A stretch of DNA of 64,000 bases from Candidatus Aminicenantes bacterium (GCA_963702005.1 OY969696.1:713680-777679); one strand, 5' to 3'; positions 31,264 to 63,354 are shown, counted from the first letter of the stretch. Notes: generated by a model not told the origin, from the sequence alone. Numbers and translations are program-made.

Positions 31264-31292
31264 GGCAGACTATTCCGTCGGAGTCCGGGCCC

Positions 31293-41811: not shown

Positions 41812-42429
41812 TCAGACGGCAGGCTCGGAAGGGACCGGTGTTTTTTTGCCGGGCGGCCAGAGCACCTTGTTGAGGCCGGTCAGGCCGAAGGCGGCCTCCA
41901 TCCGTTCCAGGAGGTTGGGGTATAGGCCCTCGGCTCCGGCCTTGACCGCGTCCTCCCACTCGGCGAGGAGCTCGGAAACCTCGAAGTCGTGCCCCTTGCG
42001 GCCGAGATGCTGGAGGCCCCGCAGGGCCTGCCAGTGGGTGATCATGATAAGGGCCAGGGCGCCGAAGAAGACGTTGGGGCCGGGGAGAAGCGTGGCCAGG
42101 CCGCTCAAGGGGAGGAGCAGGGTTTCTCCGACGAGGAGCAGGATATGGCGGGTCCGCTGCTTCTGGAGGAACAGGAAGAAGCGGAAGCGGACCTTCTTAT
42201 CCTCGGTCCGGGCGGAGACGAGGATGCGGACCGAAGGACCCTCGAGCCGGGCGACCCGGGCCAGGGCCTGCTCCTGACGCAGGGAGCGCTGAGGGAGGAG
42301 GAGAAGCTTGGCTTTGGCTTTGTCCCAAAGCCTTCGCCAGCGGGTGGTACGGACTTCGATCGGCCGAACGGGCTCGGTCGAGAAGAAGCTGTACTTATGG
42401 CCGGCGTCTCGGACGAAGAAGAATGTCAT
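41812..42429 (-). CDS. Hypothetical membrane protein (real start at MTFFFVRDAGHKY; the upstream Arg-rich ORF part is an artefact)
   Basis: Coding-like only from the internal Met. Two predicted hydrophobic helices. Confidence 0.4.
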   Translation of the reverse strand: MTFFFVRDAGHKYSFFSTEPVRPIEVRTTRWRRLWDKAKAKLLLLPQRSLRQEQALARVARLEGPSVRILVSARTEDKKVRFRFFLFLQKQRTRHILLLVGETLLLPLSGLATLLPGPNVFFGALALIMITHWQALRGLQHLGRKGHDFEVSELLAEWEDAVKAGAEGLYPNLLERMEAAFGLTGLNKVLWPPGKKTPVPSEPAV

Positions 42430-42470
42430 GCATTCTCTGGTACGCGCCGCCGCCGCGAAAGTTGGCCGGC

Positions 42471-44505
42471 TCAGAAGCTCCGCGCGCAGATCCCGCCGCC
42501 CGCGGTCCCGACGTAGATCTTGCGGGCGGCGCCGTCGACCTGGATCGAGTTCACGCTCTTGACCGGCAGGTCGCCGGAGAGGTCCGTCCAGGTCGCCCCC
42601 TTGTCGGCGCTGTGCCAGAGGCCGTTCCAGTTCCCGACAAAAAGCTCGTTCGGATTGAGCTTGTTGACGGCCAGGCAATCGCCGGAATAGGGCGCGTTGG
42701 CGAGCTTGGTCCAGGAGCCGCCGCCGTCCGTGGAGGCGAAAATGCCTTCCCACCCGGTCGCGGCATAGACCGTGGCGGGAGAGCCGCCGGACACGGCCAG
42801 GGCGTCGATCGGGCACCCGGTCGAGGGCGGGCTCAACGAGGTCCAGTTGGCCCCGCCGTCCGTGCTTTTATGCAGGACCGGCGAGCCGGAGGAGGTCGTG
42901 CCGGCGACATAGATCGTCCGGGTATTGGAGGGGTCGAACGCGGCGGCGCAAGCCTGGCTGTTTTCATCGGTCCGAATCCGGACCTGGGTCCAAGTCAGGC
43001 CGCCGTCGGTCGAGATGAAAACGCCCATGTAATTTTTGCCGCCGACCACGATGTATCCCGCCGCCAGGACGCGGTTGGGAACGGCCGGGTCGACGACCAG
43101 GATCAGCCCCTGGCAGCCGGCGCCGGGAAGAAGCTGTTGAAAGTTGGCGCCTCCGTCTACAGACCTGTAGACGCGGGGGGTGCTTCAGCCGTAGGTCGAG
43201 AGATAAACCCGGTTCGGGTCCGCGCTGGGGACGGCCAGGTCGGCGATGTTGTCGCTCCCCAGGAAATCGGGGAGCTTCGTCCAGCTCGCGCAGGCGTTCG
43301 CGCTCTTGAAAACCCCGACCGACGTCGCCGCCGCGTACGCCGTGGCCGGAGCGATCGCCGAGGACGAAGAGCCGGGCATCCGGAACCCCCCGATGTTCGT
43401 CGCCAGGATCCCCGCCTGGGACGGCAGGAAGGTTTTCCCGGCGCTGGTGCTTTTAAAGACCCCCGCCGTCGCGGAGACGTGAACCGTGCTTCCCGAGATC
43501 AAGACCTTCGACGCGAGTCCGGCGAAGCCGGTCCCGCATTTGGTCCAATCCGTTCCGCCGTTCGTGCTCTTCCAGACTTCCTTGGACCCGCCGCCGTACA
43601 CGATGCTGGGATGGACCTTGTTCGAAGGCCAGGGACTCCAGGTAAGCGATATAAGACGGGCTGTTCTGCTTCTTCCAAGTGGTCCCGGAGTTGGCCGATA
43701 TCGCCACCCCCGCTACCGTGTTTTGGTAGGACACCAAGATCCGGGAGGGATTCGAGGGGTCGATGGCGACCGTGTAAGCATAGTTGACTATGGTGTGGAG
43801 ATCGTTCATGAATGCGGGCGTGACGTTCTTCCAGGCCCCCCCGCCGTTCGTGGAGCGGAAGACGCGGGCGCGATAATTCGAGCCGTCGTAGAAGTACCCG
43901 CAGAAGAAAATGGTGGACGGATTCTTGGGGGAGATGGCGATATCGCGGCCGTAGGCGTAGCTCGACGTCGCCTCCATCGTCTTATGGCTCCAGGTTTGGC
44001 CGCCGTTCGTCGTCATGAAGACGGCGAGGCATGTCTTCCAACTGGACGTGTCATAGGTATAACTCCCCGCGACGAAAATGACCTTGGGATTTTGGGGGTT
44101 GATGGCGATCCTCCCGGAATAGCCCTGCCGGTATTGGCCGAACGGAAGCTTCGTGAAGGTCGACCCTTGATCGACCGATTTATAAAGTCCGTCCGAGGCC
44201 AGGATATAGATCGTCCGCGGATTTTTAGGGTCCAGGACGAAATCGTAAGCGTAATCGCCGAGGATGGACTTGAGGGTCCAGCTCTTGCCGTTGTTGACGG
44301 ACCGGTACACCAGCCCGCGCTCGGACACCGCATAAAGCTCGGAGGGCGATTTGAGGTTGCGGGCGATGCCCATGATGTTGCCGCCGGTGGGGCCGAGCTG
44401 GGTCCAGACCGCCGCTTGATCCACAGGGCGGGCGGCGCGCATGCCGGGGCCGCCGATGAGAAGGGCGCCAAGGATTGCCCAGATATAAACGGCCGGTCTT
44501 TTCAT
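42471..44505 (-). pseudogene. BNR/Asp-box repeat beta-propeller protein, paralog D: frameshift near 43450-43600 plus in-frame TGA at 43185-43187
   Basis: Three ORF pieces (43453-44505, 43185-43601, 42471-43049) with a signal peptide and repeated S-x-D-x-G-x-T-W motifs. The last two pieces are in the same frame, separated by one TGA. Confidence 0.6.
43154..43187 (-). other. In-frame TGA plus SECIS-like hairpin (CGUCUACA-GGUC-UGUAGACG) of paralog D
   Basis: The hairpin starts 11 nt 3' of the UGA on the coding strand. The loop is GGUC. It is coded by VYRSVD using the rare codons GUA, AGG and UCU. Confidence 0.6.
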
Positions 44506-44547
44506 TCTCCCTCCTCCGGAAAAATCCGCATTTTCCCTTCTCGGCCA

Positions 44548-44575
44548 TTATAGCGGGGGGTGTCCCGGCGGTCAA
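44548..44575 (-). promoter_or_regulatory. Sigma-70-like promoter of paralog D (TTGACC-N17-TATAAT)
   Basis: The same arrangement is conserved upstream of paralogs A, B and C. Confidence 0.45.
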
Positions 44576-44644
44576 CAGAGGTTGAGGCTCGGCGTCCGAG
44601 CCGCTGGGAGGCGACTGGTCGTCACCCCGGCGCCGGCCCGCTCC

Positions 44645-46666
44645 CTAAAACGTCCGCTTCCAGATGCCTCCACCTTGGGTCCCGACGTAGAGGGTGTGGT
44701 TCGTCGCGTTGAAAACGAGCTGATTTACGTACGGAACGGGCAGTCCCTGGCTGACGTCGGTCCAGGTCAGGCCCCGGTTCTGGCTGTAAAAAACGTTCTG
44801 GTTGTTTCCGACGAACACTTGGTTGGGATTGTTCTTGTTGACGGCCACGGCCCGGAAACCGTAGCTGTATGTTGTGAAGGTGCACTTGGTCCAGGAGGTC
44901 CCGCCGTTCGCACTCCGCCAGAGCTCACTGTTGGTCCCGACATAGACGATATTCGAGTCCTGGGGATCGACGGCGATCGCCTGGGGCGGGTATTGAATCC
45001 CGTTCGTGATCGCGGTCCAGTTGACCCCCCCATCCGCGCTCCTATACACGAGAGCGCTAGAGTTGGAGGTATATCCGCCGACGTAGAGGATGTTCGCGTC
45101 GCCCGGCGCGACCGCCACCACGGTCGATTGGCTGCCCTCTTGGGTGCTGATCCGGATGGGCGTCCAGTTCGTCCCCCCGTCCTTGGAGACGACGATTCCC
45201 ATCGACGTGACGCTCCCTTGTTTGACTGATCCGGTAATGATAAGTTGGCTGAAGTTCTGGGGATTCGCGTAGAGGCTTCCGTATCGGCACTCGTAGAGAT
45301 CGTAAATCTGTTGGAACGTCCGTCCTCCGTCTACAGACCTGTAGACGAATTCGCCCTGCGGTCAGCCGCTGGGCTTGACATAGATGGTATTGGGATTCGT
45401 GGGGTGAACGACGATGCTGGCGACGAGCGTGCTGCCCACGAATGTTCCGCAGGTCGTCCAGGCCGATCCCCCATTGGCCGTCTTAAAGAGGGCATATCCC
45501 GTGATCCCGGCGTAGATGGTGCTCGGCGAAGAAGGCGAGACGCCTAAAGCCGCGATGTTCGAGCCGCGGATGCCGGCGTGGCTGGGATTCCAGGTGGAGC
45601 CGCCGTTCTTGCTCAGGAAAATCCCAACCTGGCTTGCCAGGTGGACATTGGACCCGGCGGCCAGGATTATGCGGCTCTCTCCATGGATGCCGTCGCTGTA
45701 AGCTTTCCAGGTGATCCCGCCGTCCGTGCTCTTGAGGACGCTGTAGACGTAATCGAGCTCGCCTCCGGCATAAAGGATCTTGGAGTTGGCGGAATCGGCC
45801 GTGATGGAGTACACATACGTGATCCCTGGAGTCTGTTGGGCCTTCCAGCTTCCGCCGGCGTTCGTCGTCCGGGCGATGCCGTTGTTGTGGGCCACCCAGG
45901 CTTTTTTCGGGTCGTGGGCGTCTACATAGATGGCGTTACAGGCGGGATAGGTTCCGTCGAAAATCGCGGCGCCGCCGACGCTCGTCCAGGTGCTTCCTCC
46001 GTTCTTCGAAACGTAGGCGCGGCCGGTATCGACGCTGTTCTTATAGTCGTAGCCGCATAGATAAATGTAATTGGGGTTGGCCTTGGCAAAAACGACGTCA
46101 TATCCATAGCCGGAATCGGCCGAGTTCGGGAACCTCTTGACGGTCCAAGACGCGCCGCCGTTCGTCGTTTTAGCGACGGCGATATCGCTTTTGTAGTTCA
46201 CGTTGTCATACCGGTATGACCCGGCGATCATAATGATCTGGGGATTGGCCGGGTGGACGGCGATCCGGCCGTACCAGCCGGTAAATCCGGCCGGGAATGC
46301 GCGAACCGTGAAATTTTTGCCCTTGTCCGTGCTCTTGTGAAGATAGCCGTAGCTGAGGACGTAGATCGTGCTCGGGGTCTTGGGATCGACAGCGAGGTCG
46401 TAGATCGCCTGGGAGACGATGGATTGGCGCGTCCAGCTCGCGCCGCTGTTCGTGGATCTCCAAACCTGACTCGGCCAGCTCGAGCTCGCGGCATAGAGCT
46501 CGGCCGCCGACTTGGGATTCCGGGCCAGGCCGCGGATATCCCCTCCGTAGGGGCCGACCGGGGTCCAGGAACCGGCCCGGTCGGGCCGCTCGATCGGGGC
46601 GGAGCCGCGCCCGAAGAGGAAGACGGCGCACAGGACCGCCAGGATGATGACGACGGCTTTTTTCAT
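44645..46666 (-). CDS. Secreted BNR/Asp-box repeat beta-propeller protein, paralog A; single in-frame TGA at 45362-45364 (candidate selenocysteine or read-through)
   Basis: The N-terminal ORF (signal peptide MKKAVVIILAVLCAV) ends at TGA. The next 53 codons have no stop and read PQGEFVYRSVDGGRTFQQIY, a canonical BNR motif. They are in the same frame as the C-terminal ORF 44645-45202. Confidence 0.65.
45328..45364 (-). other. In-frame TGA plus SECIS-like hairpin (CGUCUACA-GGUC-UGUAGACG) of paralog A
   Basis: Perfect 8-bp stem with GGUC loop, 14 nt 3' of the UGA. Confidence 0.6.
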
Positions 46667-46708
46667 AGGCCCTCCTCCGGGGTTCGAGCTCGTTGCATCC
46701 GTGACCGG

Positions 46709-46738
46709 ATTATAGGCAATTTCCCGCCCGGCGGTCAA
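46709..46738 (-). promoter_or_regulatory. Sigma-70-like promoter of paralog A (TTGACC-N18-TATAAT); RBS GGAGGAGGG before the ATG
   Basis: ttgaccgccgggcgggaaattgcctataat on the coding strand. Confidence 0.45.
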
Positions 46739-46762
46739 TACAAAGGGTTGAAGGGGGGCTGC

Positions 46763-48784
46763 TTAAAACGTCCGCTTCCAGATGCCTCCACCTTGGGTCC
46801 CGACGTAGAGGGTGTGGTTCGTCGCGTTGAAAACGAGCTGGGCTACGTACGGAACGGGCAATCCCTGGCTGACGTCGGTCCAGGTCAGGCCTCGGTTCTG
46901 GCTGTAGAAAACGCCCTGGCTGGACCCGACAAACACCTCGTTGGGGTTGTTGTTGTTGACGGCCACAGCATCGAAATTGTAGGCGTTGGTCGGGAACGTG
47001 CATTTCGTCCATGAGGCCCCGCCGTTCGAACTCCGCCAAACTTCCCAAAAGGTCCCAACATAGACGATGTTCGGATCCTGGGGATCGATGGCGATAGATT
47101 GGGGCACGTATTGGATTCCGTTCGTGACGGAGGTCCAGTCAACCCCTCCGTTCACGCTCTTATAGACAAGCCCGGTATAGGTAGCGCTCTGGCCGCCGAC
47201 ATAGAGGAGGTTAGCGTTGCTGGGCGCGACCGCCGCGACGTTCGATTGGCTGCCGTCCTGGCTGCAGATTTTGACCGGCGTCCAACTCGACCCCCCGTTC
47301 GTCGAGAACACGATTCCCATCGAGGTTACGCCCCCCTGCTTGACCGAGCCCGTGATCAGGAGGAAGTTGATGTTCTGGGGGTTCGCGTAAAGGTTTCCGT
47401 ACCGGCATTCGTAGAGATCGTAAATCTGCTCGAATTTCCGTCCTCCGTCTACAGACCTGTAGACGAATTCGCCCTGGGGTCAGCCGCTGGGCTTGACGTA
47501 GATGGTGTTCGGGTTCGAGGGATGGACGACCACGCTGGCGACGAGATCGCTGCCGTAGAATTCGGTACAGGGCGTCCAGGCGGAACCCCCGTTGACCGTC
47601 TTGAGCAGAGCGTAGCCTTGGATTCCGGTGTAAATCGTGTTCGGCGAGGAAGGGGCGATGGCGAAGGCTTTGATATTTGCCGCCCGGATTCCGTTGTGGC
47701 CGGGGTTCCAGGTCGTGCCGCCGTTCTTGCTCAAGAAGATTCCCGCTTGCGTCGCCTGGTGGACCTTGGAGCCGGCGGCCAATATTTGGCGACATTCTCC
47801 GTAGAGGCCGGTGCTCGAAGCCTTCCAGGCATTACCCCCGTCGGTGCTCTTGAGGCTGCTGTAGACCAAATTGTACTTGCCGCCCGCGTAGAGGATATTC
47901 GGGTTGGAGGAATCGGCCGCGATGGCCGTAACATGCGTGATCTGGGGCGTCTGCTGGGCCTTCCAGCTCCCGCCGGCGTTCGTGGTCCGGGCGATGCCGC
48001 TGTCATGGCCCACCCAGGCTTTTTTCGGGTCGCGGGGATCGACGTGAATGGAGTAGCAGGCAGGGTAGCTGTTGTTGAAGACGGCCGACGAGCCGACGCT
48101 CGCCCAGGTGCTCCCGCCGTTCTTGGAAACGAAGACCCGCGCGGCTGTGACGCTGTTTTTCTGATCATACCCACAGAGATAAATGTAATTGGGGTTGCTT
48201 TTGGCGAATACGATGCCGCGGCCATAACCATAGTCGGTCAGATTGGAAAGTCTTTTGAGCGTCCAGGTCGCGCCGCCGTTCGTCGTCTTGGCGACGGCGA
48301 TTTCGGAATGCCAATCGGCGGTGTTGTAATAATAAGACCCGACGACCATGATAATCTTGGGATTAGCCGGGTGGACGGCGATCCGGCCGTTGTAGGACTG
48401 GAAATCGTCCGGGAACCGATGGTTCGAGAAGGTCTTGCCTTTATCCGTGCTCGTGTAGAGATAACTTTCGCTGAGGAGGTAAATCGTGCTCGGGGTCTTG
48501 GGGTCGATGGCGAGGTCGTAAATCCATTGCATGACGATCGATTGGCGCGTCCAGCTGGCGCCGCTGTTCGTGGATCTCCAAATCTGGCTCGGAGAACTCG
48601 AGCTCACGGCGTAGAGTTCGGCCGCCGACTTGGGATTCCGGGCCAGGCCTTGGATATCCCCTCCGTAGGGGCCGAGCGGGGTCCAGGAACCAGCCCGGTC
48701 GGGCCTGTCCGCCGGGCCGGGGCTGCGCCCGAATAGAAAGACGGCGCACAGGACCGCCAGGATGATGACGACGGCTTTTTTCAT
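46763..48784 (-). CDS. Secreted BNR/Asp-box repeat beta-propeller protein, paralog B; in-frame TGA at ~47480-47482
   Basis: Same architecture as paralog A, about 85% identical. The N-terminal and C-terminal ORFs are in the same frame, 53 codons apart. Confidence 0.65.
47445..47482 (-). other. In-frame TGA plus SECIS-like hairpin of paralog B
   Basis: cctccgtctacagacctgta on the plus strand gives the coding-strand GUCUACA-GGUC-UGUAGAC hairpin. The exact base coordinates are ±1. Confidence 0.55.
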
Positions 48785-48826
48785 GGGCCCTCCTCCGGGG
48801 TTCGAGCTCGTTGCATCCGCGACGGG

Positions 48827-48856
48827 ATTATAGGCAATTTCCCGGCCGGCGGTCAA
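48827..48856 (-). promoter_or_regulatory. Sigma-70-like promoter of paralog B
   Basis: ttgaccgccggccgggaaattgcctataat. Confidence 0.45.
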
Positions 48857-48963
48857 GAAACCGCGGTAAAAAGGCCATCCTCAGAACTTCCTCCACCAGA
48901 TCCCCGCCCCCTCGGTCGCGGCAAAAACTCTCCGGCCGGCCGCGGAATCGGCGTCAGCGCCGA

Positions 48964-51000
48964 TTAAAAATCCCTCCGCAGAATGCCGCCCCCCGATGTT
49001 CCGACGTAGACCTGGCGGGCGGCGCCGTCGATCTCTATCGATGTCACGCCCCTGACGGGAAGACCCTCCGAAATGTCCGTCCAGGTTGCTCCTTTGTCGT
49101 TGCTGTAGGAAAAGAAGCTCCAGTTCCCCGCGAATATTTCGTTTGGGTTGGACTCATTGATGGCGATGCAATTGCATCCCCAGGGGCCGTTCTCGAGCTT
49201 GGTCCAGGTGTCCCCGCCGTTCGTGGAGACGAAAATACCCGCCCAGGAGGTTCCCAGATAGATCGTGCCCGAGACGCTCGGATCTACGGCGATGGCCTCG
49301 ATCCTGGCTGAGGACGAGGGAGGAGTCAGCTCGGTCCAGCTCGCGCCCCCGTCCGTGCTCTTGTGCAGGGCCGGGGCATAGGAGGATTTATAGCCGGCGA
49401 CATAGATCGTATTCCTGTTCGAAGGGTCGAACGCCGCGACTTCCAGGCAGCTGCCCGTATCGTTCCTGATCTTGATTTGTTTCCAATCGGATCCGCCGTC
49501 CGTCGACAGGAAAATCCCCATTACATATTGACTGCCGCTGACGACATATCCTCCCGCTATGATGTGCTTCGGATCCGCGGGATCGGTCAGGAGGATGAGT
49601 CCTTGGCAGCCGGCTCCGGGCAGAAGTTGCTTAAAGCTTTTGCCTCCGTCTACGGAACTGTAGACGCGGGGGTTGCTTCAGCCGTAGGTCGAGAGGTAGA
49701 CCCTGTTCGGGTCCGCGTTCGGAACGGCGAGATGAGCGATGCTGTCGCTTCCCGCGAAATTGCCGAGCTTCGCCCAGCTCCTGAAGCCGTTCTCGGTTCT
49801 AAAGATGCCGTAATTGGTGACCGCGGCATAGGCTGTGTTTGCGGAGGCGGCGCTCGCCGATGAGCGGGGATATTGGAAATCCGCTATTTCGGCGGCTTGA
49901 ATTCCCGCGTGGGAGGCTTTAAAAGAGCGGCCCGCGTTCGTGCTCTTGAAGACGCCCGCCGTGGACGTGACCTGAAGCGTATTCCCCGAGGCAATGATCC
50001 TCGATACGGTGCCGCAGAGGACGTTCGAGAATGGCGTCCAATGATGTCCGCCGTCCTTGCTTTGATAGATCGTTTTATAGGCTCCTCCGTAGAGGACATT
50101 GGGATTGGTTTTGTCGAGGGAAAGGGACTGGATATTATAAAGGCTCTGAGGATTCGTCTGGTTCTGCCAACTGACCCCGGCGTCGGCCGTAAAGGCCACT
50201 CCGCCATAATACGGGACGAACAATCTCGCGGCGTTCGAGGGGTCGACGGCGACGGCGTAGGCCTGGCCGTAAAATCCCGAGCCCGCGTTCATGAAGGCGG
50301 GAGTGATGTCCTTCCAGGTCCCGCCCGTATTCGTGGAGCGGTAGATGCGGGCGATGCAGCCCGTGCCGGCCCAATAATAGCCGCAGAAATAGACCGTGGA
50401 CGGAGCCTGGGCGGGAATGACGATGTCGCGCGCGCAGCCCGAATCCGAAGTCGTGTCCATCGTCTTCTGGGTCCAGCTTTTGCCTCCGTTCGTCGATTTG
50501 AAGACGGCCAGGCACGATTTGTTGGCGCTTGAATTGGTGGTATAGCTTCCCGAAACGAAGACGATATTCGGATTTTGGGGGTGGACCGCGATTCGGCCCA
50601 GAAAGGCGTATCGATGGCCGCCGAGCGGGAATTTCGTGAATGTTGTTCCTCTATCGGCGGACTTATAGAACGCTTCCGAGGATAGGACATAGACTGTCCG
50701 CGGATTCTTCGGGTCCAGCGCTATATCGGAAGCATCGATGTCGAGGTGGGACTGGCGTGTCCAACTCCCGCAGCCGTCGGCTGACCGGAAGACTTGCCCC
50801 TGCTTGGTTAGGACGTATAGTTCGCTCGGAGATTTCGGGTGGCGCGCGATGGAGATGATATTTCCGCCGTTCGGCCCGAGTCCGGTCCAGACCGAAGCGG
50901 CCTCCGGAGACGACGATGGAGAGGGCTCCGGTCCGCGAAGGCGGCCGTAGAGCACGGCGGCGCAGAAGACGGCTAAGATGACCCCCATGGCTTTTTTCAT
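48964..51000 (-). CDS. Secreted BNR/Asp-box repeat beta-propeller protein, paralog C; in-frame TGA at 49678-49680
   Basis: N-terminal ORF (MKKAMGVILAVFCAAVLYG signal peptide) and C-terminal ORF in the same frame. The read-through sequence is SNPRVYSSVDGGKSF. Confidence 0.65.
49647..49680 (-). other. In-frame TGA plus SECIS-like hairpin of paralog C (CGUCUAC-AGUUCC-GUAGACG; the loop differs from GGUC)
   Basis: Hairpin 11 nt 3' of the UGA; 7-bp stem conserved; loop variant. Confidence 0.5.
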
Positions 51001-51041
51001 GGACCCTCCGTCGGAAGCCGCGTTCCTTTTATCCTGGCTGA

Positions 51042-51071
51042 ATTATAGGGAATTCTCCGCCCGGCGGTCAA
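51042..51071 (-). promoter_or_regulatory. Sigma-70-like promoter of paralog C
   Basis: ttgaccgccgggcggagaattccctataat. Confidence 0.45.
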
Positions 51072-51140
51072 GAAACCGCGGAAAAAAGCCGTTCTCTCCT
51101 CTTGACAAGCCGCGGGGGTTTCAATAACTTAGGTAAAGCC

Positions 51141-51707
51141 ATGAGAACCAAGACAGTCCTATCCACCCTGTTCTTTTTCGCGGTTTTCTGCCTTTTGTCC
51201 TCGGCCCTCGCCTCGGCCCAGCTCGAAGTCCCCAAGGTCGTGACCGCGCGGGCCGTCTTGTCCAAGAGCGCAGTCCACGCCGGTGAGACGGTCAAAATCG
51301 CCGTCGTCCTCAAGATCGAGAAGGGCTGGCACATCAACTCGGATGATCCCGGCGACGAGTTCCTGTTCCCCTCGTCCCTCGCCCTTGACGAGGTCGCCGG
51401 CTTCGAGGTCAAGGCTTTGGCCTTCCCCAAGCCCAAGCAGGCCAAGTTCGAGTACTCCGACTTCGAGCTCCGCGTCTACGAAGACGAGGCCGTCGTGGGG
51501 GCGCTCCTCCAGGTCGCGGAGAGCGTTAAAGCCGGCGCCTACAGCCTGACGGGAGTGTTCAAGTACCAGGCCTGCAACAATACGTCGTGCATTATGCCCC
51601 AGGACCTCCGCCTCGAGATCCCGGTCGAGGTCGTGGCGGCGGGCGTCGAGACCAAGGACGTCGAGCCCGACCTCTTCGCCAAGATCGAATTCAAGGACAA
51701 AAGCTGA
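51141..51707 (+). CDS. Exported DsbD-N-terminal (alpha-domain)-like protein with C-x4-C pair
   Basis: Signal peptide. KYQACNNTSCIMPQ resembles the redox Cys pair region of the DsbD alpha / thiol:disulfide interchange N-terminal domain. Confidence 0.4.
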   Translation: MRTKTVLSTLFFFAVFCLLSSALASAQLEVPKVVTARAVLSKSAVHAGETVKIAVVLKIEKGWHINSDDPGDEFLFPSSLALDEVAGFEVKALAFPKPKQAKFEYSDFELRVYEDEAVVGALLQVAESVKAGAYSLTGVFKYQACNNTSCIMPQDLRLEIPVEVVAAGVETKDVEPDLFAKIEFKDKS

Positions 51708-51753
51708 GGCGCGGGCCGCGATCGGAGGCTCGGTCGGCTCCGAACGGAGACGC

Positions 51754-53163
51754 ATGAAAGAATCTCTTTTTCGGCTGATCCCATCTGTGGACGCCCTCCT
51801 CAATCATCCGGAGGCGCGCCGGCTCGCCGAGGCGTACGGGCGGCCCTTGGCCTTGGACGCCGTCCGCGACGAGCTCGAGGCGGTCCGGGCCGAAATCCAA
51901 ACGGCCGGCGCCGCATCATCCTTGGCCGAGAAAGACCTTGCCCCGGAGGCCTTGCTCGACCGAGTCCGGGCGCGGCTCGAGCGGAAGCTCGCCCCCTCGC
52001 TGGGACGCACGATCAACGCGACCGGGATCGTCATCCATACCGGGCTGGGGCGGGCCGTCCTGGCTCCCGAGGCGCGGGAGGCCCTGGCGCGCGTGTCCCA
52101 AGGATACTCGCAGCTCGCCGTGGATCTTGAGACAGGTCAGCGCGGCCATCGCGACGTCCATTACGCCTCCCTTCTCCGCGAGCTGACCGGCGCCGAGGCC
52201 GGTTTCGCCGTCAACAACAACGCCGCGGCGACCGTCCTCCTTCTCAACACCCTGGCCAAAGGCAAGGAGGTCATCCTCTCGCGCGGCCAGCTTGTCGAGA
52301 TCGGGGGTTCGTTCCGGATGCCCGACGTCATGGAGACGTCGGGGGCCGTCCTGCGCGAGGTCGGGACGACCAACAAGACCCATCTCCGCGACTACGAGGC
52401 GGCGATCTCGGACCGGACCGGCATCCTCCTTCGCGTCCACCACTCGAACTACCGGATCATGGGCTTCGCCGAGGAGCCGGGGATCGAGGAGCTGGTCGAG
52501 CTCGGCCGCAAGCACGGCCTCCCCGTCGTCGACGATATCGGAAGCGGGGCGCTGGTTGACCTCAAAGATTACGACCTCGAGACCGAGCCACTCGTCCAGC
52601 GGAGCGTCCGGGCCGGCGCCGACGCCGTCTGCTTCTCGGGCGACAAGCTCATCGGCGGGCCCCAGTCGGGGATCATCGTCGGCAGGGCCAAGGTCGTCGG
52701 GCGCGTCAAGAAAAACCCGCTGGCCCGCGCTTTCCGGATCGGGAAGCTGACCGCGGCCGCCCTCGAAGCGACCCTCAAGCTCTTCCTGGACCCGGACCGG
52801 CTGAGGGACCGGCATCCCGTCTACCGGATGCTGGGGCTGGACGCGAAGGAGATCGAACGGCGGGCGCGCGCCGCGTCGGATACGCTGGCGCTCGGCCTGG
52901 CCGGGCGGGCCCGCGTTTCGGTCGTAGAGGACCGGTCCCAGGTCGGAAGCGGCTCGGTCCCGGTTGAGACCCTCCCGACCTTCGTCCTCAAAATCGAATC
53001 CGCGTCTCTTCCGGCCGAGGAGCTGGCCCGCCGGCTGCGGCGCGGCGCCCCGCCCGTCTTCGGCCGCGTCCACAAGGACGCGCTCCTTCTCGACTTTCGG
53101 ACCGTCTTCCCCGAAGAGGACGGCATCGTCATCGACGCCGTCCGGGCGGCCGTCGAACCTTAA
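51754..53163 (+). CDS. selA: L-seryl-tRNA(Sec) selenium transferase (selenocysteine synthase)
   Basis: [18 protein letters not shown] matches the SelA PLP-lysine motif SGDKLLGGPQAGII. 469 aa. Confidence 0.85.
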
Positions 53164-53178
53164 GGGAGAGAACCGGCC

Positions 53179-54384
53179 ATGGTCGACCTCGAAAAGCGCC
53201 GCCGGATCATGGGGCGCTCCATCAAGCTCGGGCACTGCATCTGCAACCCCAAGGACCCCTGTCCCTGCGACCTGTTCAAGCGGAAGAACGTCTGCCTCTG
53301 CGCGGGCGAGCGCGAAGAGGAGGCGGCCGAGGACGTCGCCCTGACCAAGCTCGTCGAGAACGCGGGCTGCGCCTCCAAGGTCTCCCAGGAATTTCTCAAA
53401 CAGGCCCTCGAGGGGCTGCCCGCCGTCTTCGACCCGCGGGTGCTCGTCAGCTCCTCGACTTGCGACGACGCCGGGATCTTCAAGCTCAACAATACGACCG
53501 CGCTCGTCCAGACGGTCGACGTCTTCTCGCCCTGCGTCGACGACCCCTACGTCTTCGGCCAGATCGCCGCGGCCAACTCCGTGAGCGACGTCTATGCCAT
53601 GGGCGGAAAACCCCTGACGGCCCTGTCCATTATCGGATTCCCCTCGGACCGGCTCTCGCCCCGGATCATGAACAAGATGCTCCAGGGCGGAATCGACAAG
53701 CTCGGCGAGGCCGGGGTCCCCGTCCTAGGCGGCCACAGCATCAAGGACGCCGAAGTCAAATTTGGGTTCGCCGTCACCGGGGTCGTCCGGCCCGATCGCA
53801 TCCTGACCAACGACAAGGCCCGGCCCGGGAACGTCCTTGTCCTGACCAAGCCGATCGGGACGGGGCTGGCCTGCTTCGCCCAACAGCTCGGGAAGGCGGA
53901 CGCGGCGCTCCTCGAGGCGACCGCCCGCTCCATGACCGAGCTCAACGGCCCCGCCGCCGAGGAGGCCGTCAGAGCCGGCGTGCGGGCCGCGACCGACGTG
54001 ACCGGATTCGGTCTCCTCGGCCACTTGGCCGAGATGGCTGTCCAGAGCCGGGTCACGGCCGAAATCTGGGCCGAGGAAGTGCCCCTGTTCAAGGGCGTCC
54101 TCGACCTCGCCCGCAAGGGGGTCGTCTCGGGCGCCGTCGAGCGGAACCGGGAATACGCGATGCGCTTCGTGACCAAGGCCCCGGACGTCGGCGAAGAGTG
54201 GGAGGCGGTCCTCCTCGATCCCCAGACCTCGGGCGGTCTTCTTCTTGCCGTTTCCCGGGCGCGCGCGGCCGGGCTCCTCAAGAGGCTCGCGGCGCGGGGG
54301 ATCGCGTCGGCGCGGATCATCGGGCGCATCGCAGAGTCGTCCGAGGGAGCGATCCGTGTCCGACTCCGGCCGGAGGGTTCTTAA
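53179..54384 (+). CDS. selD: Selenide, water dikinase (selenophosphate synthetase), Cys-type, with a Cys-rich ~45-aa N-terminal extension
   Basis: [11 protein letters not shown] corresponds to the SelD active-site (G)C/U motif. PurM-like body (DDAGIF...GGHSI...). The extra N-terminus is [26 protein letters not shown]. Confidence 0.85.
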
Positions 54385-54395
54385 GGGGAGAGGTC

Positions 54396-56319
54396 ATGGC
54401 CGGGCTCGACAAAGACCACGTCATCTTCGGCACGGCCGGCCACATCGACCACGGCAAGAGCTCGCTGGTCAAGGCCCTGACCGGGACCGATCCCGACACG
54501 CTTCCTGAAGAAGAAGCTCCGGGGGATGACGATCGAGCTCGGGTTCGTATTCCTGGACCTCCCCGACTACGAGAAGCAGATCGTCTTCATCGACGTCCCC
54601 GGCCACGAGCGGTTCGTCAAGACGATGGCGGCCGGGGCCTCGAACATCGACGCCGCCCTCCTGGTCATCGCCGCCGACGAGGGCGTATCGGTCCAAACCC
54701 GCGAGCACTTCGACATCCTCCGTCTCCTCGACGTCCCGCTCGGGATGGTCGTCCTGACCAAGGCCGACCTGGTCGACGCGGACCGGATGGCCGAAGTCCG
54801 CGGCGACGTCGTCCGTTTCGTCGCGGGCTCCTTCCTCGAGGGCGCTCCCCTTCTGGCCGTCTCGTCCGTGACCGGCGCCGGGATCCCCGAGCTCAAAGCG
54901 GCCCTGGTTGAGATGGGGCGGAAAGTGCGGCGGCGGAGCGACACGGGCTTCTTCCGGATGCCGGTCGACCGCGTCTTCACCATCCAGGGCTTCGGCACGG
55001 TCGTGGCGGGAACGGTCCTGGGCGGCGCGGTCGGCGTCGGCGACCGGATCGAGGTTTTTCCCGATCGGCTTCCGGCCCGGGTCCGGGGCGTTCAAGTCCA
55101 CGGCCGCGGCGCCGAGCGGAGCGGGATCGGGACACGGACGGCCCTCAACCTGATGGACGTCAAGAAGGAGGATCTGCGGCGGGGACAATGCGTCGCCGCG
55201 GCCGGCAGCCTGACGCCGACCAACCGGCTCGACACGGAGCTTCTCTTGCTGGCCGACGCCGGCAAGGAGCTCAAGCACCGCGAGCGGGTCCGCCTCCACG
55301 TCGGGACGGACGAGGTCATCGCCCGAGTCGTCCTTCTCGACCGGGCCGCGGTCCAGCCGGGCGAGAAGGGCTTTGTCCAGTTCGTCCTAGAGGCGCCGAC
55401 CGTGGCGCTTCCCGGCGACCGGTTCGTCATCCGGACCTTCTCGCCGCTGATGACGATCGGAGGAGGCCGGGTCCTCGACCCGACGCCGGGCCGGCACAAA
55501 CGGTTCGACGATCAGGTCATCCAGGGGTTGGGCCGGCTCGAAGGGAGCCTCGACGAGGTCGTCGAACAGCTTTTAGTCAAGGCCCGTTTCGCGCCCCAAT
55601 CTCTGAGCGAGCTGGAGTTGAGCCTGGGCGGCCGCGCCAAGGAGGTCAAGGAATCCGTCGCCGCGCTCGTCGCGGCGGGGAAGACCGTCGCCGTCCCGTT
55701 CGAGAAGGAGGAGCGCTACCTTCACGCCGGCGCCGCGGCCGAGCTCGCCGGGAGGCTCGTCGGACTCGTCAAGGACTACTTCGAGAAGTTCCCCCACAAG
55801 CTGTCGATGCCCCTCGGCGACCTCCGCTCCCAGTTCCTGAAGCTGAGCGAGGCGGCCGTCTTCCGGAAACTCCTGGAGGAGCGGGCGGCCCAAGGCGCCT
55901 TGGACGCCCAGGGGACCGAGGTCCGCCTCCCCGAGCGCGGCGTTCGGATGACGGCCCGCGAGCAGGAACTGGCCCGCCGGATCGAGGAGGCCTATCTCAA
56001 GGCCGGCTACGACAGTCCGCTCGATGACGAGCTGTGCCGGACGTTGGGCGCCGAGCCGCCCCTGTTCGAGAAGGTCCTGTTCAGCCTCTACGACCAGAAA
56101 AAGCTGATCCGTCTCAACCCCAAGGTCACCTACCACGTCGATACGGTCGCCAGCATGAAGGCGCTCGTCCAGGAGCACCTCAAACGGAAAGGGGGCATCA
56201 CGATCGCGGAGCTCCGGGATACGATCAAGCTTTCGCGCAAGTACGCGCAGGCCGTCCTCGAGTATTTCGACCGGGTCGGGTTGACCCGGCGCGTCGAGGA
56301 CCGCCATGTGCTAAAATAG
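54396..56319 (+). CDS. selB: Selenocysteine-specific elongation factor SelB, with an apparent +1 frameshift at the GAAGAAGAAG run (~54505-54520)
   Basis: Frame 0 from ATG 54396 reads [39 protein letters not shown] (SelB G1 motif). Frame 1 from 54514 reads [15 protein letters not shown]...DVPGHERF and carries the remaining G-motifs and the C-terminal winged-helix SECIS-binding domains. Confidence 0.8.
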
Positions 56320-56331
56320 ACGACGACCCGC

Positions 56332-56427
56332 GGGAGGGTATAGGTTCCGGTGGGCCTTCTGGACTTCAAATCCAGCACGGGGCCGTGAAACGTCCCGGGT
56401 GGGTTCAACTCCCACACCTTCCCGCCA
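56332..56427 (+). tRNA. selC: tRNA-Sec (selC), anticodon TCA
   Basis: 96 nt. 8-bp acceptor stem (GGGAGGGU/ACCUUCCC, one G·U). Anticodon loop CUUCAAA. Long extra arm. T-loop GGGTTCAACTCCCAC. CCA encoded. Lies 12 nt after the selB stop. Confidence 0.85.
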
Positions 56428-56455
56428 CAGCCTCTCTCAGGGGGTAGGGGGGAGC

Positions 56456-57102: not shown

Positions 57103-57223
57103 CGCTCCGGACCGTTGGTTGTAATCTGGTTCCATTATGGTTCTTTCAAGACTAAAAGTCAATACGGATCTCCAGCGGTTGTCGATCTCCGGGAGATGTC
57201 CTCTTCAGGAATGACGCTTCGAG

Positions 57224-58585: not shown

Positions 58586-58688
58586 TGTCGCCCCGCAGCT
58601 CCCTTGCTTGGGACGCCTTGCGCTCGTTCGTTTGACAATAGATGATAGACGGCCCGCGGCGAGTTGTCAAACGCGTCCCGGACTCAGC

Positions 58689-61154
58689 TTATCGTATGGT
58701 CACGGTCGCGGGCGGGCCCTCGCGGCCCGTTTCCGGATCGACCGCGACAAGCCGGTACGTGTAGGCCTTGGTCTTGTCCACGCCGCGCTCCCGATACTCG
58801 AATGTCGCCGCGTCGAGCGAAGCGACGAGGCGCGGCGTCGTCCCCTCGACCAGGTAGAGCCGGTAGGTCAGCCCGGCGTCGTTGGCAGGATTCCGCCGCC
58901 AGTTCAGGACGTTGACGTACTCGACGAAGAGGAGCGAGCGGTTTTCTTTCTTCGTGCCTTTGAAGTCGAGCGGTTCGTAGATGGTCCGCTGGAATTCGGC
59001 CCGGACGGCCAGGTCGCGGTCGACGGTGACGGTCAAGGGATTCGTCGTCCCCGATGCGTCTCCGCTCCAACCCATGAAATGATAGTTCGAGGCCGCCGTC
59101 GCCGTGATGGTCACTTGACTTCCCGGGCTATGTTTATAGGTTCCGGGAGCGGGCGTCGTCGTGCCGCCCGAGGTCGCGCTGATGACGAGGGCGTACTGGC
59201 CGCCCGGCCGGATTTGGCAGAGGCCTCCGCCCGGGGTCGCGGCGACGAGCGTGCCGGTCCCCTTGACGAAGTCGAGGGCGCTGACCGTTTTCACGATCAG
59301 GCCCAGGCTGTAATCGGACCAGGAACTCCCGAAATCCACGCTCTTCCGGACGCCGGCCCAGCCGCCCGCGTAAACCTGGTTGGGGAGGGCCGGATTGACC
59401 GCGATGGCCGTCGTCGAGGCGGTCAGGCAATGGGTCCAGGTCGCGCCGGAGTCCTCGCTGCGGAAGACGCCGTCGTCGGACGCGGCGTAAATACGGAAGG
59501 GCGAGACGGGATCGAGGACGAGGGCGGTGATGGGAGCCGAAAATACGTTGGTCCCCAGCCCCGTCCAGGTTTCGCCTCCGTCCGATGTCCGGCAAACCGA
59601 GCCCAGGCTGTTCTGAGTGCCTCCGACATAGATGATCTGCTCGTTCGTAGGATGCACCGCGATGGCGCAGACCATCCCGGGATCGGGCAGGAGCTTGGAC
59701 GCCCAATTGGCCCCTCCATCCGTCGAGATATACAAGGTGACATTGCTGCCCGGCGGACTGCCTCCCGCGTAAAGATGATCGAAGTTCTGGGAATGAACGA
59801 CCAGAACATCGAGCTGGCCCTGCTGCAACAGGCTCGTCCAGCTGTTGCCTCCATCTACAGACCTGTAGATGTAGTCTCCGGACCCTCAGCCCTGGCCGGG
59901 CGCGATCATATAAACGGTCCGGGGGTTGCCGGGATCGACGGCCGCGATATAACCCTGATCGTCGCAGCTGTAAAAATAGGGGAGGAGGGACCAGGTCCGG
60001 CCGAAGCTGTCGCTCCGATAGAATCCGCAGTTGGAAACATTGGCATAAAGGACGTTGGGGTAAGAGGCCGGTACATAGAAGGACGGGACCCGGCAGGCCC
60101 GAACCCCGGTTTGACTGGCCGCCCAGGTCGCGCCCGCGTCCGTGCTGCGGTAGACTCCGGCGTCCGAGCCGAAGAAAACCGAGCTTCCCGCCACGGCCAT
60201 GCGGCGGCAGTCGCCGAGAAGACCCGTTTCGGCGGACGTCCAGTCGATGCCGCCGTCCGTGCTCTTGTAGACCCTTTTCTGATAGCCGGCATAGAGGACG
60301 GAGGAATTCGCCGGGTCGATGGCCAGCCCGTAAGCGCAGCTGGTGTTGGCGCTGCTCTGCCAGGTCTGTCCCGAGTCCGAGGAGCGATAGACGCCCCCTT
60401 CGGTCGCGGCGAAGACCCGGGAGGGATTGTTCGGATCCGTTGCCAGGTCGTAGATCTGGGTTGAGAGCCCGCCCGTGATGTCTTGCCAGGAATCGCCGCC
60501 GTTCGTCGTCCGGTAGACGAAGAATTTAGCCGTCGTGGCGGTCCGGTAAATCCCGCTGACATAAATGACGGCCGGATTCCCGAAATTGACGCAGAGGCTG
60601 TGGCTCTCGGCGAGATCCGCGCCGGGCGAGATTCGCTTGGACGTCCAGGTTTGGCCGCCGTCCGTCGTGCGGGCTAATCCGACCGAGGCCGTCTCGGACG
60701 TTATCTGGCCGAGGATGAACAGGCTGTCGGGATCGCTGGGATGGGCGGCCAGCCGTTCGAAGCTGGTGAAGCCGCGCGGATTCGTGAGCTGCGTCCAGGA
60801 CGAGCCGCCGTTTCGGGATTTGAAAAGGGAGAGCCAGCTCATGGCATAGAGGCCGCCGCTTCCCGGAGGGCCGAAGGCGAGGTCCGTGATGGGATCATTG
60901 AATAACCCGATCCTCTTCCAGGTTTTGCCTTCGTTCGCGCTCCGGTAGACCTGGGCCGGCGTCGAATCGAAGACGGCCATGAGATCGTTGGCGTTCGCGG
61001 GATTCACGGCCAGGTCGCGCAGGCCGCCGCCGTCGGGACCGATCGATTTCCAAGCGGGGTTGTCCGCCCCGGCCGGCCGCGGCCGGGTTGGAGCGGCGGG
61101 AGGGCCGAGGATGAGCGCGGCTATCAGGATCGAGAATCCAATTCCTTTTTTCAT
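58689..61154 (-). CDS. Secreted BNR/Asp-box repeat beta-propeller protein, paralog E; in-frame TGA at ~59886-59888
   Basis: N-terminal ORF (signal peptide MKKGIGFSILIAALILG) and C-terminal ORF 58689-59828 in the same frame, 19 codons apart. Read-through reads GSGDYIYRSVDGGNSW. Confidence 0.65.
59853..59888 (-). other. In-frame TGA plus SECIS-like hairpin of paralog E (AUCUACA-GGUC-UGUAGAU)
   Basis: 7-bp stem with GGUC loop, 14 nt 3' of the UGA. Coordinates ±1. Confidence 0.55.
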
Positions 61155-61371
61155 AAAAACACCCTCCGCCTGGAATCAGCAGGGTCCGAATCTGATTCCC
61201 GATTATTTTATATAGGAGGGCGGTCGGGGAGTCAACCTTTCGACACCCATAGCCGTTTCCGGCTTAGTATGAGTGCTGCAAGGCTGCTCCCCGGCCCCGG
61301 ATTGATTTGTGGAAGCTTTTCTGGTAAACAAGGGAGACAGGAACCGACATCGCGGGAAGGAGGTAGGGCTC

Positions 61372-63354
61372 ATGCAGGCTTGGAAGCGCCGATTCCCGGC
61401 GGCCCTCATCAAGATCCTGATCCTCGGCGCGCTCGCCTTTCTTTCGGTCAAGCCGGCCGCCGCCCAGAATCCGATCGACTTTACCCTCAAGGACGCGGAC
61501 GGCAATGACGTCCACCTCCGCGACTTCCTGGGCAATAAGGTCGTCCTGGTCGATTTCTGGGCGACCTGGTGCGTCCCCTGCGTCAAGGAGCTGTCCCACT
61601 TCCAGCGCTTCTACGAGTCCTATAAGGACAAGGGTTTGGTCGTCCTGGCCATTTCCGAGGACGGCCCCGAGACCGTGGCCATGGTCAAGCCCTTCCAGCG
61701 GCGCTACAAGTACACCTTCACCATCCTCCTCGACTCCGAATCCAAGGTCCTGGCCCTCTACAACCCGAGGGTCGTCTTGCCCTACACGCTCCTCATCGGC
61801 CGCGACGGCCGGATCGCCAAGATCCACCAGGGCTACAGCCTGGGCGACGAGAAAATGCTCGAGCAGGAGATCGTCGAGCTTCTCGAGCCCAAGGCGGAAG
61901 TCAAGGCGAGCCGGATGTCGCTGAGCGCCAGCGAATCCTTCCTGTACCGCCATTTCACCGACAAGGATTATGTCGACGACTCGCGCGAGGGCCGGCCCAA
62001 CCAAATCCTCAACAAGTTCGACCTGACCCTTAACGCGGGCGATCTCCTGGTCGGGATCAGGGCCGACGCGAACCTCGACTTCTCGCCGATGCGGCACGAT
62101 TACAGCCTGGCCAAGCGGTTCGTCGAGTTCAACAAATGGAACTTCAGCCTGCGGGCCGGGGATTTCTATTACTCGGTGGGGCGGGGGCTCGCCTTCAGCC
62201 TGCTCAAGATCTTCGAGAAGGAGGGCCTCGAGTACATCATCGACACGACCATCGAGGGCGGGAAGCTCAGCTACGGCGGGAACAAGTTCGAAGCCTGGGG
62301 GGGCTGGGTCGAACGCGAGCGGACGTCGCGGGAGGCGCCGATCGTCCGGGACCTGGTCGGGGGGCTGAGCGTCGGGACCCGCGTCTTGAGCTTCGCCGAC
62401 GTCAACCTCAACGTCGTCGGGGCGCGGCTCGAGCCGGGCTCCGCGTTGGGGAGCCGGAACGTCTCCATGGAAACCCTGACCTTCTCGGCGGCCAAGATCG
62501 GCAATTTCGCCAAGTTCTACGGCGAGGGCCTCCTCATCCAGAAGGAAAAATTCTATGTCCCGAACACGATCTACGGCCACGGCGTTTATCTCGAGTCGGG
62601 GCTGTTCTTCGGGAACCTGACTCTTTTATTCGAGTTCAAGGATTACCAGGACCTCGACTTCGAATACAACCGGCCGCCCCTGCTTGAGAGCGAGCAGCTG
62701 GCCGTCGTCGCCAACCAGTTCGTGACCTCGGCCAAGGACTCGACCGGCGCCGCGATCCGGGCCGATTGGTATTTCCCGGGGGCCTCGACCCTTCTCTTTG
62801 CCAAGGGCAGCTGGATCGACGACCTGCCCGGCCACTTTCCGCGGACGATCACCCATTTTTTCGGGGGCGTCGAGAAGAAGTTCAAGGAGACGGGCTGGCT
62901 GACCCTGATCGGCGGCTACCGAAACGAGCAGGCGAGCTCCCTGGTTTTTTACTATACGGCGGGCCGGACCTTCCATTGGCAGGGGAATCTCAGCTATCCC
63001 CTGACCAGGCGTCTGAGCCTCGAGCTCGACATCGAGGCCAAGGACTTCGACGGAACGGTCCCCTTCGGAGGGAGGTTTACCGATTATTTCGAACGGCGCT
63101 CGTACCTGTCCTTGAGCTACTCCCCCCGTCTCATCCTGACCGTCCTCTACGACCGGACGGACGACCCCGAGATCCTGGCCGTCAAGAACAAGAAGGATTG
63201 GTGGGGGACGCAGCTCGAGATCAAACTATCCCACGCCAAGTCGATCCGGATCTTCTACGGGTCCAACAAGGGGGGCGTCAAGTGCGCGGGCGGCGTCTGC
63301 AAATTCTTCCCGCCCTTCGAAGGGTTGAGGATCGACGGCGTCCTTAGGTTCTGA
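61372..63354 (+). CDS. TlpA/ResA-like thioredoxin (WCVPC) fused to a ~500-aa C-terminal domain ending in Phe (outer-membrane beta-barrel-like)
   Basis: Signal peptide; VVLVDFWATWCVPCVKE thioredoxin-fold active site. The C-terminal region has alternating-hydrophobic strands and ends ...GLRIDGVLRF. Confidence 0.55.
   Translation: MQAWKRRFPAALIKILILGALAFLSVKPAAAQNPIDFTLKDADGNDVHLRDFLGNKVVLVDFWATWCVPCVKELSHFQRFYESYKDKGLVVLAISEDGPETVAMVKPFQRRYKYTFTILLDSESKVLALYNPRVVLPYTLLIGRDGRIAKIHQGYSLGDEKMLEQEIVELLEPKAEVKASRMSLSASESFLYRHFTDKDYVDDSREGRPNQILNKFDLTLNAGDLLVGIRADANLDFSPMRHDYSLAKRFVEFNKWNFSLRAGDFYYSVGRGLAFSLLKIFEKEGLEYIIDTTIEGGKLSYGGNKFEAWGGWVERERTSREAPIVRDLVGGLSVGTRVLSFADVNLNVVGARLEPGSALGSRNVSMETLTFSAAKIGNFAKFYGEGLLIQKEKFYVPNTIYGHGVYLESGLFFGNLTLLFEFKDYQDLDFEYNRPPLLESEQLAVVANQFVTSAKDSTGAAIRADWYFPGASTLLFAKGSWIDDLPGHFPRTITHFFGGVEKKFKETGWLTLIGGYRNEQASSLVFYYTAGRTFHWQGNLSYPLTRRLSLELDIEAKDFDGTVPFGGRFTDYFERRSYLSLSYSPRLILTVLYDRTDDPEILAVKNKKDWWGTQLEIKLSHAKSIRIFYGSNKGGVKCAGGVCKFFPPFEGLRIDGVLRF

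Follow-up and report, generated by a model that had tools for sequence, protein, structure and literature searches.

The region described here is a stretch of 64,000 nucleotides (nt) from the genome of a Candidatus Aminicenantes bacterium (GCA_963702005.1, OY969696.1:713680-777679), hereafter the window, whose own numbering is used for all coordinates. It carries five paralogous genes, named A to E, for proteins built from BNR/Asp-box repeats. All five lie on the minus strand; D, A, B and C form an array that adjoins genes for selenocysteine (Sec) synthesis, and E lies apart (Table 1). Each gene contains a TGA at the homologous site, followed by a short hairpin. An earlier note, made from the sequence alone, had put the array forward as a candidate novel selenoprotein family, and this proposal is followed up below by comparison with metagenomic loci (L numbers) and database homologues (P numbers).

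Translation showed that A, B, C and E each consist of a single frame with one internal stop only, the TGA at the homologous site. For these four genes this bears out the description in the earlier note, in which an N-terminal and a C-terminal open reading frame (ORF) share one frame with no other stop in the gap between them. D deviates on both points: its N-terminal ORF (start 44505) runs for about 290 codons, leaves the frame at approximately 43621-43622 and ends at an out-of-frame TAA. Alignment of D with C and four metagenomic copies pointed to one inserted A (GAACAAGG versus G-ACAA), so that D, as sequenced, is either a pseudogene or the product of an assembly indel. Read-through past the TGA leads directly into an Asp-box (...[VI]Y[RS]SVDGG...), thereby completing the motif as the earlier note had described. 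The true starts of all five genes are preceded by GGAGG, for instance upstream of the ATG at 46666 (A). Read by eye, the N-termini resemble signal peptides (e.g. MKKAVVIILAVLCAVFLFG), by which the paralogs are probably exported to the cell exterior. Pfam matches of A were to Sortilin-Vps10 and BNR, and pieces of the family also matched PSII_BNR. E has an additional C-terminal InlB-B-repeat-like domain (Flg_new_2) and a tail; orthologues of E were found in L015-L019.

TGA is a normal stop codon in the window, as the earlier note had stated. It terminates many Pfam-supported genes of the window, including those for the DsbD_N-like protein, the amine oxidase, a histidine kinase, a sigma-54 activator and TatA, and a reassigned genetic code is therefore excluded.

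Downstream of every paralog TGA a candidate selenocysteine insertion sequence (SECIS) was found, in line with the search of the region that the earlier note had suggested. It is an 18-nt hairpin, GUCUACA-GGUC-UGUAGAC, located 12 nt (C, D) or 15 nt (A, B, E) after the TGA. The stem of 7 base pairs (bp) is usually lengthened by a C-G pair (7-9 bp overall) and the loop is a GGUC tetraloop, except in C, where the loop is AGUUCC and the hairpin is possibly weakened. In one metagenomic copy GCC replaces GUC in the hairpin. The six codons of the hairpin, GUC UAC AGG UCU GUA GAC, encode the V-Y-R-S-V-D of the next Asp-box, and this raised the question of whether the hairpin could be a by-product of the peptide. 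Several observations argue that it is not. AGG, UCU and GUA account for only 14%, 4.8% and 6.7% of their respective codon families here, and the joint chance of three such rare codons is about 1e-4 per site. The full 7/7 palindrome was present at 14 of 16 Sec-adjacent sites, the remaining two being 6/7, but at not one of the 232 other Asp-boxes of these and related genes. Among 18 sites (the window plus six metagenomic loci) the spacing was only 12 or 15 nt, and the hairpin codons were identical in 16-18 of the 18, while the neighbouring Gly codons use 2-4 synonyms. Finally, the non-Sec homologue P0027 (L089), which has Thr (ACG) at the position of the UGA, has kept the VYRSVD peptide with the codons AGA/UCC/GUG.

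The whole window was scanned for a TGA followed by a hairpin with a G/U-containing loop and a stem of at least 6 bp, with 16 TGA sites as the result. A GGUC-type (or AGUUCC) hairpin together with a BNR frame open on both sides was confined to the five paralogs. Four other sites (28896, 28852, 28692 and 55514) were also open on both sides and were rejected, having loops GTTTAT, GTTCCC or GCGT and no supported gene. Sites 28896 and 28852 belong to a perfect 44-nt tandem repeat (28802-28898, 2.2 copies, one 9-bp hairpin per copy), which overlaps the TGA stop of a 791-codon gene at 28894-31269 (minus strand). A permissive Rfam scan of 42000-62000 found the tRNA-Sec and no SECIS family, a result that we took as uninformative.

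To look beyond the window, the JGI metagenome collection was scanned with the hairpin alone (TCTACAGGTCTGTAGAYGGNG); the TGA was not part of the pattern. This yielded 73 matches on 67 contigs, of which 72 are preceded, at a distance of 4, 5 or 6 codons, by an in-frame TGA within an open BNR frame. Carriers of the family include sediment samples of the JGI series Ga0299912, Ga0299915, Ga0315274 and Ga0316628. The sole exact hairpin copy without an upstream TGA, L082 (2517-2537), belongs to another BNR protein (...FISGDEKGGVYRSVDGGRNW...). In total, hairpin and UGA occur together in at least 66 distinct metagenomic contexts, and at least 70 distinct homologues have the UGA within an otherwise continuous frame. 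L075 (minus strand, hairpin at 776 in minus-strand numbering) is a divergent form, ...SVDCGSG-U-LGTPYNVYRSVDGG, with a C-x3-U arrangement and an 18-nt spacer.

The variation among these copies was informative as to the level of selection. Over 79 distinct contexts the closing pair of the hairpin was G-C in 60, A-U in 18, A-C in one and G-U in none. A change at position 1 of the pair is non-synonymous (Val/Ile), one at position 18 synonymous (GAC/GAU). Over the 50 codons that follow the UGA, those of the hairpin left aside, 57% of the single-nucleotide codon differences (1742 of 3041) were synonymous; in 19 unique A/B-type sequences the hairpin codons did not differ from one another. This pattern argues that the region after the UGA is translated and under purifying selection, and that the hairpin is under selection at the RNA level.

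Two size classes were seen among the database homologues. Among the best 120, 37 are fragments of 414-462 amino acids (aa) covering 61-64% of A, and the others are unsplit proteins of about 670 aa. The fragments end at this site, having been cut at the UGA by gene callers; alignment showed that the region after the UGA is colinear with the unsplit homologues. Contigs with such fragments (L009-L014) carry tandem arrays of split and unsplit paralogs, as in the window, and in L011 the array again adjoins DsbD_N, selA, selD and selB. The E-type orthologues (L015-L019) are conserved near thioredoxin-fold genes; on L015, the sole contig long enough, the orthologue is also near an amine oxidase gene and selB. 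The closest named homologues are from Candidatus Aminicenantes and Acidobacteriota metagenome-assembled genomes (MAGs); for SelA, the search yielded only an 'Acidobacteriota bacterium' with 61% identity. A search of genome contigs with N-terminal patterns from the A/B/C alignment led to eight loci, in MAGs of Acidobacteriota, Thermoanaerobaculales, Geobacteraceae and Pelobacter: seven full-length relatives (23-26% identity) and a fragment of 28 residues. Not one of the eight shed light on the Sec site.

Alignment placed a Cys at the Sec column in P0022, P0025 and P0034, with the codon TGC in P0022 and P0034. In these last two (L087 and L088, respectively) the hairpin is broken and only a relic of its 5' half is left. 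The Thr form P0027, which has Sec-containing close relatives in L059 and L020, likewise retains a partial relic (GTCTACAGGTCC-ACG-GAC). Such relics in the Cys (TGC) and Thr (ACG) forms suggest that these descended from Sec-containing ancestors.

Table 1. Features of the window discussed in the text.
Feature	Coordinates	Strand	Details
Paralog D	42471..44505	-	Same architecture, with TGA and canonical hairpin; one extra A at about 43621-43622
D, putative SECIS hairpin core	43155..43172	-	12 nt after UGA
D, TGA	43185..43187	-	In frame with the C-terminal two thirds
Paralog A	44645..46666	-	673 codons; predicted exported tandem beta-propeller; proposed Sec (U) at codon 435
A, putative SECIS hairpin core	45329..45346	-	GUCUACA-GGUC-UGUAGAC; 15 nt after UGA
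A, in-frame TGA	45362..45364	-	Proposed Sec codon
Paralog B	46763..48784	-	673 codons; proposed Sec at codon 435; 74% identity to A
B, putative SECIS hairpin core	47447..47464	-	Identical to that of A
B, in-frame TGA	47480..47482	-	
Paralog C	48964..51000	-	678 codons; proposed Sec at codon 441
C, variant hairpin	49648..49665	-	GUCUAC-AGUUCC-GUAGAC; 6-bp stem, 6-nt loop; 12 nt after UGA
C, in-frame TGA	49678..49680	-	
Exported DsbD_N-like protein	51141..51707	+	C-x5-C; PF11412, E 3.9e-10; directly upstream of selA
selA, selenocysteine synthase	51754..53163	+	TIGR00474, 562 bits; PF03841
selD, selenophosphate synthetase	53179..54384	+	TIGR00476, 364 bits; Cys type (ENAGCASK)
selB, Sec-specific elongation factor	54396..56319	+	TIGR00475, 278 bits, from model position 36
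tRNA-Sec	56332..56427	+	Anticodon UCA; ARAGORN; Rfam RF01852, 73.8 bits
Paralog E	58689..61154	-	821 codons; proposed Sec at codon 423
E, putative SECIS hairpin	59853..59870	-	AUCUACA-GGUC-UGUAGAU; closing pair G-C to A-U, compensatory; 15 nt after UGA
Putative AhpC/TSA-type thioredoxin-fold protein	61309..63354	+	WCVPC; long C-terminal region; divergent from E; from sequence reading

The genes adjoining the array include those for Sec synthesis and decoding, which the earlier note had described as a complete module. This holds for selA, selD and the tRNA-Sec gene, which are intact, but not for selB. One inserted A in GAAGAAGAAG (54507-54516), compared with GAAG-AGAAG in the intact L011 orthologue, changes the frame after ...LPEE, and the N-terminus with the P-loop (start 54396) is out of frame with the other 597 codons. 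If this frameshift is real, Sec decoding would be off in this strain. The DsbD_N-like gene that precedes selA does so also in the independent metagenomic contig L011 (6535-7101), and it may be co-transcribed with the Sec biosynthesis genes. Divergently from E runs the gene for a thioredoxin-fold protein; it resembles, by position and domain type only, an AhpC-TSA/Redoxin+DUF6029 gene of L015 (15650-17632).

Several further observations concern the same neighbourhood. The N-terminus of selD (53179-53330) is a Cys-rich extension of about 50 residues (...CLCAG), and the L011 selD orthologue (3444-5045) encodes 533 aa with an added CMD (AhpD-like) domain. Downstream of the E-type gene, L015 and L018 contain Redoxin/Thioredoxin, Fer4_5 and small outer membrane protein beta-barrel genes. 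Genes for a PIN-domain toxin and a FitA/Arc-like antitoxin (56456-57204, minus strand) lie between the tRNA-Sec gene and the amine oxidase gene, and are absent from the equivalent place in L015.

For the protein fold, the Cys homologue P0022 was modelled as a stand-in for the Sec paralogs (AlphaFold, 42 sequences). The model had a mean predicted local distance difference test score (pLDDT) of 91.2 and a predicted template modelling score (pTM) of 0.89, and DSSP divided it into 14 four-stranded blades, arranged 7+7. Cys448 of P0022, which corresponds to the Sec column, is in a turn between strands 441-445 and 451-456. DSSP strand counting on this homologue would place the Sec column in the strand 2-3 loop of blade 2 of the C-terminal propeller. 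In propellers, the strand 2-3 and strand 4-1 loops form the ligand-binding ('top') face, and Asp-boxes are on the opposite side. The Sec residue would thus face the cleft between the two propellers.

According to the earlier note the Sec has no redox motif around it. That is true of the linear sequence, but when the 71 distinct Sec sites with sufficient flanking sequence were compared, 70 carried a Cys 23 to 29 residues before the Sec, 23 to 25 residues after it, or both. The lone site without such a distant Cys is L075, with its CxxxU context. By topology the flanking Cys residues would be located in strand 4-1 loops, that is, in neighbouring loops on the same face as the Sec.

The top 25 PDB matches of the model were all GH74 xyloglucanases (Foldseek E about 1e-27, template modelling (TM) score 0.62-0.65, identity 16-18%). 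These enzymes (2CN2/2CN3, 5FKQ, 7KN8, 6P2O) are, as here, tandem 7+7 BNR beta-propellers, and their functional residues are in strand 2-3 loops of the same face as the proposed Sec. Their N-terminal catalytic Asp, which is the residue changed from D to A in 2CN3 versus 2CN2 and in 5FKQ versus 5FKT, is located in the strand 2-3 turn of blade 1, in the motif (R/A)(T/A)DIGG. Their second Asp we take to be in the equivalent C-terminal turn, on the basis of GH74 pseudo-symmetry, of catalytic-residue numbering and of a GDLGG motif in 4LGN. In the present family, in contrast, the loops read AASSSWPSQ and AGITGYA, and the Sec is on blade 2, probably one blade away from the GH74 catalytic position. As the corresponding turns of A-E contain no Asp or xDxGG, the family is, judged by these motifs, not one of GH74 hydrolases. 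We also considered that the Sec might replace the C-terminal catalytic Asp of GH74, and rejected this: the HMMER alignments slipped by one blade between runs, and DSSP assigned the Sec to blade 2, not blade 1.

The Ycf48 and Sortilin families, whose labels Pfam and JGI attach to these proteins, share the Asp-box blades, which explains the Pfam matches, but differ in architecture. Ycf48/HCF136 is a single 7-bladed propeller of about 330 aa, and the partial matches to the Ycf48 model NF010237 (NCBIfam) scored 47.2 and 50.1 bits versus a cut-off of 326; the paralogs are thus not Ycf48. The match to PF15902 (Sortilin Vps10) consisted of 5-8 partial stretches. Vps10 domains are 10-bladed propellers with a 10CC module, unlike the 7+7 fold here, and the Foldseek TM score to the SorLA Vps10 domain was only 0.25. 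NF045728 (F510_1955 family glycosylhydrolase, 246 positions) reached summed scores of 183 and 228 bits versus a cut-off of 175. These were spread over five partial stretches, the best at 70-191, and the score is most likely repeat-driven.

Could the UGA be passed without Sec? If it were read by a standard tRNA, or locally recoded to Trp, Cys or Gly, a continuous polypeptide would result as well. TGA, however, ends many ordinary genes of the window; in 72 of 73 cases the UGA is accompanied, at a fixed distance, by a strictly conserved hairpin of SelB type; that hairpin decays where the codon is TGC; and Sec machinery is adjacent. We therefore regard such non-Sec read-through as very improbable. 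It is hardly credible that each pair represents two independent genes, one for the N-terminal and one for the C-terminal propeller, or that the pairs are pseudogenes or sequencing artefacts, although public gene callers annotate two ORFs and D is frameshifted. The 19-53 codons from the TGA to the first possible start have no start codon and yet are under purifying selection, the codons after the TGA encode strands of the same blade, and the unsplit homologues are colinear across the site. GGAGG is absent before all five downstream ORFs, that of A being preceded only by a weak AGGGAG about 10 nt upstream. The recurrence of the pattern in the metagenomes is in keeping with the earlier note's argument against artefact and pseudogenisation.

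A different possibility is that the family consists of true selenoproteins and that the trait is decaying in this genome, with selB inactivated, D a pseudogene, and A, B, C and E made only as non-functional fragments truncated at the UGA; the loss would have to be very recent. We consider this unlikely. Both +1 A insertions, which are of the same kind, are in Sec-related genes. In addition, the window has five further ORF pairs whose overlap looked suspicious, and all proved to be separate, intact genes; indels are thus not obviously frequent in the assembly. On the other hand, the frames, UGAs and hairpins of A, B, C and E are intact, as are selA, selD and the tRNA-Sec gene. Moreover, both indels are one-base length changes in runs of A, a typical assembly error, and the source is a 4.3-Mb contig that may come from long reads. 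The selB and D indels are the main caveat for this genome; the status of the family is independent of them.

Taken together, the conserved UGA, the SECIS hairpin, the selection on the codons after the UGA, the Cys homologues and the adjacent machinery support the interpretation that A-E belong to a previously uncatalogued family of exported selenoproteins in which UGA encodes Sec. On the present sequence evidence we put the probability of this at about 0.85. A number of findings count against it. The loop of the hairpin is altered in paralog C, and the hairpin has no matching Rfam family. D is frameshifted, and the frameshift in selB detaches the P-loop from the main ORF. In one close pair of Sec and non-Sec sequences the GGUGG loop has become QSTESH. 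The position of the Sec in three dimensions was derived from strand counting in the model of a Cys homologue. The upstream flanking Cys is also present in some non-Sec homologues, so that the evidence from flanking Cys is suggestive only. Finally, only 3 of the 21 unsplit homologues have Cys at the Sec column; the other 18 have D, A, T, G, N, E, F, S, P or R. From this it appears that Sec is a lineage-specific feature of the family and not a catalytic residue required throughout.

Assuming that the UGA does encode Sec, SelB-GTP-Sec-tRNA(Sec) would bind the hairpin while the ribosome is at the UGA, and Sec would be inserted. The full-length products, of about 70 kDa (A-D) and 86 kDa (E), would then be exported by their N-terminal signal peptides. 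When selenium or SelB is lacking, translation would stop inside the second propeller and leave a fragment that cannot fold. Once exported, the Sec could act as a reactive centre, either redox-active or binding a chalcogen or soft metal; this is the least certain step. It would probably pair with the conserved Cys of a neighbouring loop, possibly as a selenenylsulfide, and would probably depend on the co-encoded thioredoxin-fold and exported DsbD_N-like proteins to stay reduced. Because of the flanking Cys and the nearby thiol-redox genes, our leading guess is that the Sec, on the cleft face, is redox-active or reacts with a chalcogen or soft metal. We would go further only tentatively, the odds being rather against it: the Sec in the cleft loop might be catalytic or ligand-capturing and draw electrons from the DsbD_N-like and thioredoxin-fold proteins. 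A-E would then represent a new class of extracytoplasmic selenoenzymes and the first beta-propeller selenoproteins, with 4-8 paralogs per locus in Acidobacteriota/Aminicenantes-like sediment bacteria. If so, a single family would dominate the selenoproteome of these organisms, with Sec outside the thioredoxin-fold redox context.

The family also has a bearing on annotation, as gene callers split each gene into two ORFs labelled 'hypothetical' or 'PSII assembly factor-like'. In metagenomes the mis-annotation extends to at least 66 distinct JGI contexts and, of the best 120 matches, to at least 37 clusters (90% identity) that are truncated; the 18-nt hairpin provides a simple search handle for further members. 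With Sec in a loop position that is filled by unrelated residues in most relatives, the family would be a natural system for studying the gain and loss of Sec and its role outside canonical redox motifs. It would further be a very clean case of dual coding, an RNA signal having been frozen onto a structural motif of the protein.

The 119 prokaryotic selenoprotein families and subfamilies listed in a 2026 review do not include the candidate family; none of them is BNR, beta-propeller, GH74-like, Sortilin-like or Ycf48-like (PMC13188914). Nor did the family match any selenoprotein model in NCBIfam release 20. It goes unmentioned in the deep-Sep paper, the BSepDB paper and Haft's 2022 preprint, and our search for literature on BNR, beta-propeller or Aminicenantes selenoproteins returned nothing relevant. 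By far the most bacterial selenoproteins are redox enzymes of the cytoplasm or periplasm that have a thioredoxin-like fold and a CxxU/UxxC motif, to which this family would add an exported, paralog-rich beta-propeller scaffold. Exported selenoproteins or selenoproteins without a thioredoxin fold are already represented in Table 1 of the 2026 list by the DsbA/DsbG-like proteins, the TonB-dependent receptor of FCYXU type, the MtrB/PioB-like beta-barrel GSU2204, the ExtKL cytochrome and SaoB/SaoC (PMC13188914). These resemble the present family in having Sec outside the cytoplasm, in several cases without a classical CxxU/UxxC, and all were found by truncated ORFs plus a SECIS; in contrast, none is a beta-propeller or BNR protein and none is reported as a tandem array of 4-8 paralogs per locus.

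As in the fdhF-type SECIS of Escherichia coli, the hairpin is located directly 3' of the UGA within the coding sequence. The apex of the fdhF element is the same CAGGUCUG (...CA-GGUC-UG...). The upper stem-loop of the E. coli SECIS, 17 nt long, is separated from the UGA by 11 nt; its apical loop contains G23 and U24, and SelB binds at U17 and G23 (PMC8659212). The spacing of 12 or 15 nt in the present family (rarely 18, in metagenomic copies) is of similar magnitude. Its hairpins differ in their perfect stem, which lacks a bulged U17. They are also superimposed on an Asp-box, and the protein is unrelated to formate dehydrogenase. The recoding mechanism is thus entirely canonical; what is unusual is the fold, the predicted export, the expansion into arrays of paralogs, the lack of a conserved Cys at the Sec position, and the fusion of the SECIS with an Asp-box.

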